A stretch of 63,890 bases of DNA, filler included, from Octopus bimaculoides (Eukaryota), in assembly GCF_001194135.2 (NCBI RefSeq). It is 4 parts of 4 records of this genome, joined end to end, with 100 filler letters (N's around TTAATTAATTAA, not from the genome) between each part and the next. Parts side by side here need not be neighbours in the genome. Positions count along the whole stretch, not along the records: positions 1 to 20,108 come from NC_068982.1; positions 20,209 to 29,622 come from NC_069002.1; positions 29,723 to 53,955 come from NC_069000.1; positions 54,056 to 63,890 come from NC_069001.1. One strand, 5' to 3'. The notes beneath the pieces were generated by a model. The model was not told the DNA's origin and made no database searches. It was given only the letters and a program-made list of their open reading frames with translations. Below, piece by piece: positions 13,219 through 63,890 of the stretch (position 1 is the first letter of the stretch; each line of letters starts with the position of its first letter). The position numbers and the translations under genes were made by a program.

Positions 13219-13305
13219 CTTTCGATGACCGTTTCCAGAGTTTATGTCCCGACAGAAAAATTATAAAAATTTTACAAACCATGTGGACGATGTCCCCTTC
13301 ATCAG
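13219..13305 (-). ncRNA. Hammerhead ribozyme-like motif, mirror copy lacking the 5' strand of stem I
   Basis: Minus strand reads CTGATGA-AGGGG...CTCTG-GAAA-CGGTCA-TC-GAAAG; the arm stops just 5' of CTGATGA. Confidence 0.5.
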
Positions 13306-13340
13306 TAATTGTCAAGATTGTGATTTTATAATGAGGATAC

Positions 13341-13432
13341 CTTTCCTGATGAAGGGGACATTTTCAGCATGGTTTGTAAAATTTTTATAATTTTTCTGTC
13401 GGGACATAAATTCTGGAAACGGTCATAGAAAG
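13341..13432 (+). ncRNA. Type I hammerhead ribozyme-like motif
   Basis: Stem I CTTTC (13341-45)/GAAAG (13428-32); CTGATGA 13346-52; long stem II region; GAAA 13416-19; CGGTCA; UA cleavage dinucleotide 13426-27. A.G at the base of stem II and a C.A mismatch in stem III are atypical. Confidence 0.6.
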
Positions 13433-14709
13433 TGGACTTCCTTGAATTGTATTATATACCATTTATATGTTTAAAAAAAAATAGATTGAATTTTATGGAT
13501 TTCTTAATTGGAACTCTTAACTGCTCTTAATTTTAGAATAGAAAAATATTTTTGTCACTTCGATTTTCCTTACTTTTTTTTTTCCATATGTATCCCACAA
13601 TGATTCTATTTACATGTATTTTTATGTATATTTATATTTTTTAAATTATTCATATATGTCAATATGTATTAATATATATATATATACACATTTTAAGTCG
13701 AATTTATAACTGTGTATATGAGTATGTAAAAAAAGTTGATTGCCTAATTTGAGTTTTTATTTTAATTCTTATCTTTTGTCTTGGGTTCGACCCGAACACT
13801 TCTTAAGCAATTCTATATATTTTGTAAGAAAGAATAATAATACTGTTTGTGTGTGTGTGTGTGTGTGTGTGTGTGTGTGAGTGTATCTTTGACATGGTAT
13901 TGCAAGATAGTTGTGAAAGAATGTCACTGTCATACAACCAGTGTCCTTCATTCCCAATCTTCTGTAAAAACATGTCTGGCCATAAGGAAATATCACCTTA
14001 CTTGGAAACAGACAAGCAGGGCATCTGATCATAGAAATGTGCCCTAATAAACTCTCTCTGACCAATGCAAGCAAGGAAAGTAGGCATTAAAAAAGATGTG
14101 CCTATTTTTGACAAAATTTGACAAAATTTTTTTACTTCAACAAAATGAGATTTAAATTCTTTTTATTATTTTATCTTTAAAGATTTTTGGCATCTAGAAG
14201 TAAAAACCTAAGACATTAAAATAAAGCAAAACTTTATAGCCATTATCTCTCCTTTAATACCAAGTGACTAAAGCAAGAAGGGAAAAATTATGTTGTCTTT
14301 TATACCAGATGTATTAGATCAATGTGTTAAATCATTGAGAATTTCTTGCACCTCATCTAATTTGTGTTTAGTTTAAATCTGTCACAGCTTCTGTTATTTT
14401 CACAAGAATATATGAATTGTAACATGAGACTTATTAACAATTGTTGAACAAATTCTCTGAATGAAAGCTCATATTTTAAATTACTTGAAATACCGGTAAT
14501 AACGATACTATTCTATAAGGATTTTGATATCCTTGTTGAATAATGTCAATGGTAGAATCAGTACTTCATCGAATCTAAATTATTCACAGATAATTAAAAA
14601 TTCACAGACTATTGAAAATTAACACAGAAATAGTTTAGAATTTAGTCTGTAGAGATTAATAAAAAATAGTTAATGAAATGAGATGCAAATTGGTGCTTTT
14701 AGCACCAGG

Positions 14710-15027
14710 TTAACTCTGATTCAAAAGATTTATGATCAAATACAAAGATTTATGACCATCCTGTATTTTTATCAATCGAGGATTGCCTAGTTCAATATTG
14801 CATTCTTTAAGATAATAATTATGATTTAATGTAGATTTTCCTGGATGAGTGACCATATCAGGGTTGCTTATATACTTGGAATATATGTTAAAAATTGATA
14901 AGGCACTGGGGCTAAATGCCACAGCATATGCAATTTCAGTTCCTTGTATTGTGAGTTCTATGTTTATCAGAGTTGACTTTGTTTCTATGTTTTCGCCTCT
15001 CCAACACAGATAAGTGCCAGAAATATC
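14710..15027 (-). CDS. Candidate coding exon, unknown product
   Basis: Branch-like CTTAAT plus TTCTTCTGCATAG acceptor at 15029-28; 105 open codons DISGTYLCWRGENIETKSTLINIELTIQGTEIAYAVAFSP...LLNQS*; extends the supplied 14710-14922 ORF in frame. Confidence 0.4.
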   Translation of the reverse strand, partial: DISGTYLCWRGENIETKSTLINIELTIQGTEIAYAVAFSPSALSIFNIYSKYISNPDMVTHPGKSTLNHNYYLKECNIELGNPRLIKIQDGHKSLYLIINLLNQS

Positions 15028-60380: not shown

Positions 60381-60594
60381 GGTTTATAAACACATTTATA
60401 CTCTGAGCATGATATTTAACTGCATCAGGTGGTGCGGCTCAGTGCGGGAGTTCTGGAGTTGTGGCGAGCATCAACTCTCTTCAAAATTACCGTTACTCCC
60501 AGGTCCTTTCTGTCCCAAAACGGTAGTGTCATCCACGGTTCCACCTATGAGTTTAATAGGTTTCTCAGTAGTACAGACGCCTGCTATTTTTGAG

Positions 60595-60722
60595 ATAACA
60601 TGATGAACAACAGTTGATTTGCATCAATTATTATTTATCAATTATTTACAAAAAAAACTGCACTCTTTTTGTAAATAATTGATAATAATTGATGCAAATC
60701 AACTGTTGTTCATCCGTGTTAT
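60595..60722. repeat. AT-rich ~57-bp-arm hairpin
   Basis: 60595-60655 pairs with 60666-60722, with one 4-nt bulge. Confidence 0.85.
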
Positions 60723-61440
60723 ATCTATTTCATGTTTTCTTTAAATATATATAAATATATATATATATATATATATATATATATTTATATAATATAACAC
60801 ACAAACACACACACACACACACACTCACACACATGCGCGCGCACATATATATATATATATATATATATATATATAATTAATGCACCAAATATGGATTCAT
60901 CTAATCTAGTGGTACTTTCAAAAAAGCTCCTTTAGTGGACCCGGCTACAAACCATATCGTATACCAATACATAGGGGTACAATGTAGAGTTCTATGCAGT
61001 AAATGCTCTAAATCCACCCAGTGAAGATTATTTCATTAGGAACATATAGAATGCAAAGAAAGGCAGGAGGCATGCGAAGAATATATTTCACCAGTTAATA
61101 TCCATAATATTGCGATCATTTCGTAGCCAACATCATGAAAAATAATTTATATTAGTTGATGATAAATTATTTTACATGTCTGCACTATTGTGCATATCAT
61201 AAATTACATCGTGCTATTGTGCTGGTTACCAGGTTGTTTACAAGCTAATACTAGCTAGCTCGTGAGATCCATAGAATATCGTGATTACATCCATTCTTCA
61301 ACTCTAGTATACACATACAAAAAATATCTTCGGAATATTAATGTATGGTAGACAATAATTAACAAAATAGTTTTCTATAGAAGGGGAGAAGGGAGATTTA
61401 GATAAAAATGTATGTATGTATACGCGTGCGCATATTTATT

Positions 61441-63890
61441 ATGAAGACAGAGTATTTTTACTAAGTACACCGATATCAGAGCTAGAAGGACAGATAAGTC
61501 GTAAGGATGGGTTATTAAAAAAATTGTGTTTATGATCTTTTAAAATAAAATGAGGTTGCTTAGGATCAAGTGGTTCCGTCTTCATCTGTAAGTTATACCT
61601 CTCCATAATTTTCTTAGCCTCAAGGTTGGCTTTCCTGAGTGCACTTTTACCGGTAATCCTATAGAAAGAGGAGGGGTAAAGGAAAGATCATAAACAATTT
61701 TTTTTTAATAACCCATCCTTACGACTTATCAGTCCTTCTAGCTCTGACGTCGGCGTACTTAGTAAAAATATTATAGATAAATATCTTCCTACCTTAGTTA
61801 AAAAATTAAAGCTTAGTTTATGGTCCAATTCGTTCCAAGTCGTCGACAGGTTTAGCTCTATTACTAATAAGAGGAGCGCTAAATTTATCCAGTTTGACAT
61901 TTCTAGTTTCTATTCCTCCATCAACCCAATAGTACTTAATAAGGCACTCTGGCTAGCTCATAACAAAGCTGGTCTCACCAGGGAAGAGATTAATGTTGGC
62001 CGCCAGAAAGTCTATCATAAAGTTTGACGACAAGCTGTTGGTCCGTAAAGACATACCCGATGCTTTTGATGTTACGATGGGAAGTTCTGATTCAGCACAA
62101 ATAGCTGATTTGGTCGGTATATATATGCTTTATGAAATGGCAGACCAGTTCCCAAGCATCAATGGAGGTCCATATCGTAATGATCGTTTACTCTACCTTC
62201 AAAATGTTTCTGACCAAAAAATACAGAAAGTTAAGAATAGCTTAGTTAAGTTTTTCCGTAGAATGGGCTTACGCATCGTTTTTTATGATGATGTAACGAA
62301 AGTCAACTTTTTTAAATATTACACTAAATTTACACAATAATTCGTACTTCCCATACCACAAAGCATCGACCAATCTTAAGTATATTAGCCATTTCAGTAA
62401 TTATTCTAGGGCAATCACTAAGAACTTAGTTAAGAATATTTCATTTAGATTGTCTAAGTTATCTGCTAATGTTGACATTTCCAACGACAAGGCTGAATTT
62501 TATAACTCTGCCTTACAGACTACACAGAGAAAGTTACCTACATTAATTCCATTCAATCTTATTCTACCTTTAGTAATGGGGACAAGAAATCTAGTTGTAA
62601 GGATATAAACGATATCAATTTTAATTTATACGCCAACACCAAACATAGGGAGAGAGATAACCGTTATTTAACCCCCTTATTTCATTCTAAAGGTAAATCG
62701 ATGTCTTTTAAAGATAGTTACACTAAAAATAAGGCAAAGTATTTGGTTGATTATTCCTTATAGGAGGCAAATTAAATCTAATCTTCCTTTCCAGTTTTAG
62801 GAAGTTTCCAAAGAATTCTAGATAATACTCTATTATCAACACAAAAAATCTCTCACAAATTATCTTCTCACATAATATTAGTCTGTTTACTAATCCAATT
62901 ACAAACACTAACATTAATTTAGCTAATACCAACCATCCTCCTAGAAATATCAATAACAAGGTTATTGTCTCTGAAGTCAACACCAACAGAATTAGGTTTA
63001 TGTCTAGTAATTCTAAGATTAAAAACTCTATATACCAGTGTAAAATTACTTCAGGTACCGATGTCTTTTTTTATATAAGTAGTTCCTCTTCTCAGTTATC
63101 TAAAAGAATTTCTAATCATTACTCTACATTTAGGGATAGTAATAAACGCAACAGTACAGGGCTTAGTAAATTAATTTGGTATCTGAAAGACCATAATAAA
63201 CAATTTAATTTAGATTAGTTGATTCTCTCCATTTCATTCCCATATGATAAAGGCAAAGAATTCTGCCAACTCTGTAATACAGACCTATTTTTTGTTCTTT
63301 TTTCTAAGAATCCTCTTGTAAACACGGTTATAGAGCGTGCTTACCGATGTAAACATTGACAGAAACATACCTTTAGTTCATAAGAGTGATATCTACCATT
63401 ATATATAATTTGAACATTGATTTTCTTCTTACATTTCACTTCTACTAGATATATCTTTTTCCAAGCATTTAAGCTTTTATTTAATTCACATATCGCTCTA
63501 TATTTCTTCTTTATTAGTTTTCTGCTTATTTCTTTCCTTTATCCCTTCTCTTTCTATGGGATATCTTTAACGGTATATCCTCTAACGGTTTTTATAAAAA
63601 CTTAATAGCGTTCCATTCATCATTATACACATCCATCACATTCTGTTAAAATGCCTTATTGATGAGTTTGGTTTCTTTCTTTCTTTGTTTCCCTGATGAG
63701 AAGATTACATTGTTTTACACCATTTTATTCCTTTGGAATAATACCAAATTTGTCTTCGAAACATGTGTTGGAAGTAAAAGAATTTGAATAACACCTGCAT
63801 TTAACTCCATTTATTTATTTATTTATATTATACAAAATATTTCACATCAACCAGGAGTTTCGACCTTTACAAACAGGGTGTTACGTCCTT
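61441..63890 (+). mobile_element. Degenerate Penelope-like element (RT, GIY-YIG, HHR-bearing terminal repeat) with an inverted 5' segment
   Basis: From 61683: KDHK..FNNPSLRLISP..., FDISSFYSSI, FDVTMGSSDSAQIADLVG, GPYRNDRL (YRDD mutated), NFLNITLNL..YFPYHK; GIY-YIG IYQCK...YIS...KRISNHYSTF; CQLC motif near 63260; several frameshifts. Confidence 0.9.
63684..63778 (+). ncRNA. Type I hammerhead ribozyme in the PLE terminal repeat
   Basis: Stem I TTTGTTTCC (63684-92)/GGAAGTAAA (63770-78), 9 bp with 2 wobbles; CTGATGA 63693-99; stem II GAAGA/TCTTC; GAAA 63758-61; palindromic ACATGT stem III; GUU triplet, cleavage predicted after 63769. Confidence 0.85.

Follow-up and report, generated by a model that had tools for sequence, protein, structure and literature searches.

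Minimal type I hammerhead ribozymes (min-HHRs) have been tied to Penelope-like elements (PLEs) since 2014, when thousands of solo motifs per animal genome were reported and judged to be probably linked to truncated PLEs (Cervera and De la Pena 2014, PMC4209133). In that work, metazoan PLE min-HHRs are of type I, with a stem I of 4-5 bp, a palindromic stem III and two min-HHR traits: an extra base after A9 and, in most motifs, G10.1-C11.1. Many families occur per genome; the motifs are mostly solo, and some form opposite-strand pairs ~100-700 bp apart. The Hydra clade of PLEs, which includes Hydra-1_Obim of Octopus bimaculoides (Craig et al. 2021, PMC8557442), has a near-3' hammerhead, 5' inversions, an RT with MGS-x-D-x-A, CxxC and CxH motifs, and a CxCX5C linker. 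Non-LTR retrozymes (Cervera and De la Pena 2020, PMC7229834; Li et al. 2026, 10.64898/2026.07.22.740005) are short ORF-less units with type I motifs and a weak palindromic stem III; they form same-strand tandems of 150-450 bp with canonical motifs and circular RNA. Our statements on these four sources are drawn from parts of them. Apart from Hydra-1_Obim, a literature search turned up no survey of PLE hammerheads in octopus; Repbase/Dfam, subscription papers and the supplements to PMC4209133 and the 2026 preprint were outside its scope and may list the families described below.

We analysed a stretch of O. bimaculoides DNA of 63,890 nt, filler included (the window), in which an earlier note had reported nine hammerhead motifs at seven loci. 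We conclude, with a probability of about 0.8, that these nine minimal type I hammerheads are the 3' ends of old, 5'-truncated copies from six or seven endonuclease-positive PLE families. They resemble the metazoan PLE min-HHRs of PMC4209133 in type, stem I length, extra base, G10.1-C11.1 pair, palindromic stem III, number of families and mostly solo or opposite-strand arrangement. They differ in that three window families have long stem II loops and two have A.G mispaired at the stem II base.

Hammerhead motifs in the window

All nine motifs were found where the earlier note had placed them; five, however, are broken by deletion, truncation, core change or stem III mismatch (13305-, 13346+, 19262-, 45851- and 56236-). 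Only 19496+ and 63693+ are clean, while 29093- and 33504- have an intact core and weak stems. Each of the pairs at 13 and 19 kb is an inverted duplicate (88-90% identity between arms), so the nine motifs count as seven insertions. By their flanks these fall into six or seven families.

The core (CUGANGA / GAAA / UH) is complete in six of the nine (13305, 13346, 19496, 29093, 33504 and 63693) and broken in 19262, 45851 and 56236. Stem III is fully self-complementary in four motifs (19496, 29093, 33504 and 63693), has one mismatched pair in four (13305, 13346, 45851 and 56236) and is deleted in 19262, bearing out the minimal architecture with palindromic stem III described in the earlier note. 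Stem I has 3-5 pairs at 6/7 loci; an extra base follows A9 at 3/7 and G-C occupies 10.1-11.1 at 4/7. In the families with long stem II loops, stem plus loop spans 49-63 nt. With one motif per insertion, stem I was paired in 26/28 cells and stem II in 25/28, and each stem column showed 2-7 different letter pairs between families. The observed pairing was reached by 6 (stem I) and 2 (stem II) of 5040 strand permutations, a test inflated by the choice of loci, which had been picked for pairing.

Motif frequency relative to control sequence had been named as a check. With a descriptor that demanded an unaltered CUGANGA core and tolerated one defect at most outside it, six hits in the window scored at least 12; fourth-order Markov controls averaged 0.34 such hits and never exceeded 2, so that 0/200 reached six. 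When one core change was allowed, 5 hits reached a score of at least 16 vs 0.05-0.12 expected; 0/60 controls matched that count at each of two Markov orders, and the reversed sequence gave no hit. The motifs are more frequent than chance predicts. Only motif 63693 passed the strictest descriptor, and a scan for the U3-A8 core variant gave 0 hits in the window.

Three additional low-scoring matches (3419+, 44289- and 52433-) combine a core change with weak stems, and we treated them as probable chance matches rather than further hammerheads. Two hits at a score of at least 14 are nevertheless more than the control mean of 0.13-0.22 hits. Rfam returned 134 matches for the whole window at E up to 1, with no hammerhead model among them, and at E up to 10 it gave 3 matches each for the 45.8 kb and the 63.7 kb stretch, again with no hammerhead. 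The window matches were microsatellite-driven miRNA matches and a U3 match at 13210-13373; the latter was weak (E 0.013, 29 bits vs a cut-off of 34), and a snoRNA reading was rejected.

A PLE ORF precedes the 63.7 kb hammerhead

The complete minimal type I hammerhead at 63684..63778 (+) has a 9-pair stem I, a 6-pair stem II with a long loop and a self-complementary 8-nt stem III; the predicted cut is after U63769. A decayed, 5'-truncated and frameshifted PLE ORF at 61683..63359 (+), comprising RT, thumb and, at its C-terminus, an endonuclease (EN) of GIY-YIG type, ends 334 nt before the hammerhead core. It matched P0001 in tblastn (E 2e-40 for RT, 4e-9 for EN) and gave profile hits with iE of 4e-31 to 3e-21; a Pfam search of the PLE pieces gave nothing meaningful. 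The link to PLEs proposed in the note was correct. An inverted 5' piece of the same element lies at 61445..61672 (-); the final 100 nt of this piece duplicate the beginning of the forward one (84/96 identical). Truncation at the 5' end with an adjacent inverted copy was found in the units at 61.4, 19 and 13 kb. Window self-BLAST revealed no upstream direct pLTR copy for any motif; none is expected at the 63.7 kb unit, which is truncated inside RT. Assignment to endonuclease-positive PLEs could be made for the 61.4-63.8 kb unit only; the catalytic motif is altered in this copy.

The 61.4-63.8 kb unit shares several features with Hydra-clade PLEs, Hydra-1_Obim included (PMC8557442, in part): the window translation contains CQLC and CKH (CxxC and CxH at the EN C-terminus) and MGSSDSA (a divergent RT4(B), MGS-x-D-x-A), and the unit has both a near-3' hammerhead and a 5' inversion. 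It belongs to a different family from Hydra-1_Obim, with other hammerhead stems and a protein that is clearly divergent by eye. No CxCX5C linker was seen in this copy; such a cysteine pattern occurred in no + frame at 62.9-63.0 kb. The strict motif is present in 21/59 relatives, many being partial. The region of the clade's RWK and DKT motifs falls 5' of where this copy is truncated (no profile coverage before position 149). We class the unit as Hydra-like and not as a member of the Hydra clade.

Depth and RNA reads of the 63.7 kb family

The earlier note had also proposed a large set of non-autonomous HHR elements, most of them without an ORF, that no ORF would reveal. A statistically supported ORF is attached to only 1/7 insertions. 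We determined depth at 80% likeness in 21 bins over 61.7-63.8 kb, using public DNA runs X1 and X14 (second organism); run-based depth and reads covered the 60.9-63.9 kb stretch. In X1, mean depth was 4,029 in RT bins and 19,618 in EN bins, and depth reached 102,108 in the hammerhead bin; the corresponding values in X14 were 9,335, 57,570 and 151,181. These values are summed contig depth, which is no copy number, and the conserved hammerhead draws in more distant subfamilies at this likeness. Depth rose 16-25-fold from RT to hammerhead and correlated with position (Spearman rho 0.74 in X1 and 0.73 in X14), in a non-monotonic profile that dipped at 63.2 and 63.5 kb. This increase across RT and EN up to the hammerhead accounts for ORF-less copies of the family by 5' truncation. 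The proposal of hidden ORF-less elements was not supported where it could be tested: an RT-EN ORF precedes the 63.7 kb motif, and depth climbs through coding sequence. The last 5-fold step (EN to hammerhead, X1) could partly represent short non-autonomous derivatives. The data point to a second Hydra-like family, probably with thousands of 3' ends, that two organisms of the run index have in common.

The 63.7 kb motif is intact despite the frameshifts and stops of its ORF, and sequence of its family was found in an RNA run, as might be expected if the intact motifs (19.5 and 63.7 kb) were working ribozymes kept by the host to cut host transcripts. We consider such a role very improbable. Five of nine motifs are broken, both twins included; only 2/693 RNA reads were at least 99% alike to the 63.7 kb copy, and the two read orientations were similarly represented; no in vitro cleavage was observed for single minimal motifs (PMC4209133). 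No pile-up of read ends was seen at 63769 in RNA-seq run X24, a result uninformative on cleavage (~6% read, fragmented library, reads cut at 63801-63890); ordinary RNA-seq libraries likewise showed no end pile-up for an anole PLE (PMC11167929). No back joint over the 63.7 kb unit was present among the 15 joints listed of 124 in X24. A run search listed no holder recorded as RNA, which is not evidence on expression.

Head-to-head pairs at 13 and 19 kb

The 19 kb unit (19155..19649) consists of two inverted arms (188/214 identical) whose outer ends break off at the same base, next to TA repeats. One arm carries a complete minimal hammerhead at 19492..19567 (+), with a 4-pair stem I, U-A at 10.1-11.1 and an 8-nt self-complementary stem III; the predicted cut is after A19563. 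Its broken twin at 19203..19266 (-) has a 47-column deletion that takes most of stem III and the cleavage site. The 13 kb unit (12272..13772) has arms of ~430 nt, ~90% identical, which extend ~345 nt beyond the cleavage site, longer than in other units; two later high-copy repeat insertions interrupt the left arm. Its motif at 13341..13432 (+) is decayed with the core intact, and has a 5-pair stem I, a C15.2.A16.2 mismatch and a weak stem II with G-U in 3/4 pairs. The twin at 13219..13305 (-) is truncated exactly at C3 and therefore lacks the 5' strand of stem I. A 5-nt stem III was considered for the 13 kb motifs and left no stem I; an 8-nt assignment was adopted instead.

Long inverted arms and TA borders are also features of fold-back (MITE-like) DNA elements inserted at TA; that reading also takes the weaker motifs as chance matches, which do occur (3419+, 44289- and 52433-). 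This explanation is highly unlikely: the motifs are strongly enriched over controls, the 19.5 kb motif has its stem I, core and stem III in common with the non-palindromic 33.5 kb unit, the arms are asymmetric at the centre, and an inversion of this kind is also found in the ORF-bearing 61.4 kb PLE. Both pairs, at 13 and at 19 kb, are inverted head to head and are not tandem retrozymes.

Units at 33.5, 56.2, 29.1 and 45.8 kb

The minimal hammerhead at 33461..33508 (-), related to the 19.5 kb motif, has an intact core and A.G and U.C mismatches at the stem II base. On the same strand, 820 nt upstream, a 44-codon PLE RT fragment of the motif B' region (34324..34455, -) is identical to P0153 at 29/44 residues (66%, E 1.5e-12); P0153 itself has a weak RVT_1 match. 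The fragment is of non-Hydra type, and its link to the motif is unproven. The decayed hammerhead at 56206..56239 (-) has stems of 3 pairs and a stem III mismatch, and its core is not CUGANGA because G8 is A. About 350 nt upstream lies a probable C-terminal fragment of a Neptune-type GIY-YIG endonuclease (56575..56718, -), recognised by its by-eye likeness to Neptune1_Ap in the PMC8557442 alignment; the 56.6 kb peptide had no match in a homolog search (0/2 candidates), Pfam or Atlas. The by-eye status of this EN fragment and the distance and non-Hydra type of the 33.5 kb RT fragment count against the PLE-end reading, as do the supported ORF at one insertion only, the lack of an upstream pLTR copy, the missing parents of the 13, 19, 29.1 and 45.8 kb units and the length of the 13 kb arms.

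The 29.1 kb hammerhead (29062..29098, -) has an intact core, an extra A after A9, a 4-pair stem II and a 4-nt palindromic stem III; its stem I is damaged (1 pair, mismatch, 3 pairs). At 45811..45856 (-), a minimal hammerhead has perfect 5- and 6-pair stems and a change of U16.1 to C; its unit spans ~150 nt between AAT repeats, and a peptide read across it gave only scores under 0.8. No parent ORF was found within the window for the 13, 19, 29.1 or 45.8 kb units.

Some units, above all these last two, might be solo copies of non-autonomous families (retrozyme monomers or mini-PLEs), as the earlier note proposed; such families would amplify on their own from a short HHR-bearing RNA with PLE protein supplied in trans. 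Both are short and ORF-less and start 48 nt after a (TA)n run (29.1 kb) or 53 nt after a microsatellite (45.8 kb); in the 63.7 kb family, depth jumps steeply over the final 200 nt; retrozyme monomers have been reported in dispersed form, and PLE pLTRs are the source of retrozymes (part of 10.64898/2026.07.22.740005), to which the window units are also related. Such an origin is unlikely. The motifs are of the minimal PLE type vs the canonical type I of retrozymes (part of PMC7229834), none matched an Rfam hammerhead, and stem I has 3-5 pairs at 6/7 loci; in the profiled 63.7 kb family, depth rises through coding sequence too. Window self-BLAST revealed no same-strand tandem HHR array, and the longest TRF period among those listed was 67 nt; solo monomers of arrays elsewhere remain compatible with this. 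Neither the tandems nor the canonical motifs of retrozymes were seen in the window. Pattern scans for relatives gave 2 loci in metagenome contigs, both chance 24-nt matches inside a bacterial-type gene without a hammerhead, and none in viral contigs or prokaryote genomes.

Discussion

The reading of the motifs as PLE 3' ends is supported by the microsatellite borders, the head-to-head pairs, the RT-EN ORF with its 5' inversion and the 3'-rising depth. The stem III types tabulated for Hydra-clade PLEs (File S2, PMC8557442) also resemble those at 19.5, 33.5 and 63.7 kb. By analogy with known PLE biology, the parent PLE protein would nick AT-rich or microsatellite DNA, and copying of the parent RNA would start just 3' of the hammerhead. 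Copying would usually end early, often with inversion, so that most insertions would carry the hammerhead with a small part of the ORF or none. Within the parent, the hammerhead may cut multimeric transcripts as a dimer via its palindromic stem III, possibly aided by protein. The window copies are predicted to be inert because they are decaying and are single or on opposite strands, so that no transcript would contain two in cis.

A speculative and rather improbable extension is that units of the 29.1 and 45.8 kb types form fixed-length mini-PLE families of ~150 nt, high-copy and microsatellite-targeting, amplified in trans from hammerhead-cut RNAs. If true, octopus genomes would harbour, hidden in their unclassified repeats, PLE parasites that make up a SINE-like tier separate from tandem retrozymes.

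The arrangement of hammerheads on PLE ends is already described for many animal genomes, and the old, decayed copies in the window are ill suited to tests of what the PLE hammerhead does. Because Rfam misses the motifs described here, a descriptor scan offers an inexpensive means of locating PLE 3' ends in the unclassified repeats of octopus and of sorting them into classes.

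Hammerhead motifs relative to chance

In the window, 57,693 positions are called and 6,197 are N; microsatellites and short high-copy repeats make up most of the sequence. The two strands carried 35 CUGANGA heptamers vs ~23 expected under a first-order model; thus, CUGANGA alone was of little diagnostic value. When the descriptor also demanded GAAA and UH, pairing in stems I and II, and self-complementarity of stem III, with one defect tolerated, six matches were found (window position and strand: 13346+, 19496+, 29093-, 33504-, 45851-, and 63693+), relative to a mean of 0.34 and a maximum of 2 in 200 fourth-order Markov sequences. 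A separate earlier descriptor gave a comparable excess over controls, and a single motif (63693) passed the strictest one. All six matches were among the nine motifs of the earlier note, whose claim that such motifs are present held. Rfam hammerhead models gave zero matches in the window. With one motif taken per insertion, 26 of 28 stem I cells and 25 of 28 stem II cells were paired, values inflated by selection; pair types varied by family.

The motifs at 63693+ and 19496+ were clean hammerheads, and those at 29093- and 33504- had an intact core with weak stems. At 19262-, a deletion took the cleavage site together with most of stem III; 13305- is truncated at C3 and lacks stem I; 13346+ has a 15.2-16.2 mismatch and a stem II rich in G-U; 45851- has U16.1 changed to C; and 56236- has G8 changed to A. 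In one assayed hammerhead of a Penelope-like element (PLE), G8C is reported to abolish cleavage (PMC11167929). The claimed population of nine is real and above chance, but overcounted as working ribozymes: these last five motifs are broken. The nine represent seven insertions, as each of the pairs at 13 and 19 kb arose by inverted duplication of one unit.

In the 13 kb palindrome, the left arm starts exactly at hammerhead C3 (13305, -; one case). Two copies of a 7-nt direct repeat lie within stem-loop II at 13 kb (13349-13407), the pattern expected had a short insertion, duplicating its target, extended loop II before the inversion.

A Hydra-like PLE at 61.4-63.8 kb

The core of the 63.7 kb hammerhead begins 334 nt past the stop of a frameshifted ORF (61683-63359). 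This ORF matched reverse transcriptase (RT)-endonuclease proteins (E 2e-40 for RT and 4e-9 for the GIY-YIG-type endonuclease, EN) and a profile made from 59 of 152 fetched RT-endonuclease proteins (iE as low as 4e-31). An inverted 5' piece of the PLE lies at 61445-61672. Across the window, the same profile revealed no further significant PLE remnant (next best iE 0.065). The matched proteins bear RWK, DK[ST], CxCX5C, CxxC, and CxH, described as the defining motifs of the Hydra clade (PMC8557442). Translation of the window copy showed CxxC, CxH, and a Hydra-type RT4 motif; the CxCX5C linker was absent, and the copy is therefore termed Hydra-like. It differs from the published octopus family Hydra-1_Obim, as presented in PMC8557442, in its hammerhead and, when compared by eye, in its divergent protein.

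Read depth along the element

Four public runs were compared with 60900-63890 at 80% likeness, a level at which conserved sequence draws in more subfamilies. In X1, a DNA run, a contig of the locus's flank had a depth of 31.7; summed depth averaged 4,029 in RT bins and 19,618 in EN bins, and the hammerhead bin reached 102,108, 25 times the RT value. The corresponding values in X14, a DNA run from a second organism, were 9,335, 57,570, and 151,181 (16-fold). Rank correlation of depth with position over 21 bins was 0.74 (X1) and 0.73 (X14), and the profile dipped at 63.2 and 63.5 kb. The climb across coding sequence matches the prediction of 5' truncation; the final step could include non-autonomous derivatives. 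Read loosely, as summed depth is no copy number, these values correspond to thousands of 3' ends vs about a hundred RT-bearing copies.

The RNA run X24 gave 693 reads over 60900-63890, two of them at a likeness of at least 99%. Orientations were similar at the 63.7 kb hammerhead (38.8 and 25.0), and read ends piled up at 62987 and 62434 only (fragmented library, ~6% of the run). An anole PLE is likewise described as having no read ends at the cleavage site (PMC11167929).

Surroundings of the other six insertions

On the same strand as the 33.5 kb motif, 820 nt upstream, lies a 44-codon PLE RT fragment with other sequence between; that the two form one element is unproven. The intervening sequence at ~33560-34000 resembles a + strand remnant of a mariner transposase. 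A 48-residue peptide ~350 nt upstream of the 56.2 kb motif resembled the endonuclease end of Neptune1_Ap by eye; database searches gave no match for it, so the link to a Neptune-type EN is a lead only. The only named protein match to any window fragment was an Octopus bimaculoides protein (66% identical).

The 19 kb unit consists of two head-to-head arms that both end at the same base next to TA repeats, and the 13 kb unit is similarly head-to-head (arms ~430 nt). The 29.1 kb unit starts 48 nt past a (TA)n run, and the 45.8 kb unit 53 nt past an (AAT)n run. Truncation, neighbouring inverted copies, and microsatellite targets are described as standard PLE traits (PMC8557442).

The inverted arms at 12272-13772 and 19155-19649 are 88-90% identical and, if transcribed, would give double-stranded RNA, which could be a substrate for A-to-I editing. 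In a pattern scan of metagenome contigs with the 45.8 kb motif, 24-nt matches at L001:861-884 and L002:92-115 lay inside a bacterial-type gene and were rejected as unrelated chance matches; L002 additionally has a P-type ATPase-like frame (by eye).

Other repeats

An open frame at 59048-59359 (+) contains a KISRPDIVVW...IIEVSC stretch resembling the restriction-like endonuclease of R2/R4-type LINEs; Pfam gave no match to this frame. At 19786-20551 (+), three C2H2 zinc fingers (Pfam zf-C2H2 E 7.7e-14) follow a LINE-like frame. This stretch, broken at 20109-20208 by an N-masked 12-nt spacer, probably represents a LINE 3' portion. The filler positions 20109-20208, 29623-29722, and 53956-54055 each read as 44 N, 12 called bases, and 44 N. 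A Tc1/mariner-like transposase remnant lies at 9069-9704 (+; weak DDE_3 match, E 0.017). A near-perfect hairpin (46309-46375) lies within a SINE-like repeat; its Rfam match to mir-5881 (51 bits) fell under the cut-off of 87.

Origin and predicted activity of the motifs

Cervera and De la Pena (2014, PMC4209133) describe minimal hammerheads that number thousands in a genome and fall into several families. Most are single motifs, probably derived from truncated PLEs, and some form opposite-strand pairs ~100-700 bp apart. The window shows this pattern, and the best reading, to which we give a probability of about 0.8, is that its motifs are 3' stubs of truncated PLEs. The short units at 29.1 and 45.8 kb are unlikely to be solo retrozyme monomers: such monomers are documented (10.64898/2026.07.22.740005), but the tandem arrays and canonical motifs reported to define retrozymes (PMC7229834; 10.64898/2026.07.22.740005) are not present in the window. 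PLEs are already documented as abundant in octopus (PMC13282606, PMC8967140), and giant squid is reported to have 235 Rfam hammerhead-1 loci (PMC6962438); literature searches found no survey of the hammerhead families seen here.

For truncated PLEs, studies of such elements suggest that the parent protein would nick AT-rich DNA and that reverse transcription would begin within the parent RNA, 3' of the hammerhead (PMC11167929). Early stops and inversions would then leave stubs bearing the hammerhead. The parent's ribozyme would act as a dimer, formed through its palindromic stem III, to process multimeric RNA. Minimal hammerheads in vitro are reported to show no cleavage as single motifs and weak cleavage as dimers (PMC4209133), and protein was required for cleavage by the anole PLE motif (PMC11167929). 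Within the window, no same-strand hammerhead partner was found for any copy. Transcripts of the 13 and 19 kb palindromes would each carry one sense motif, and the opposite arm would pair with it. The hammerhead copies in the window are predicted to be inert.
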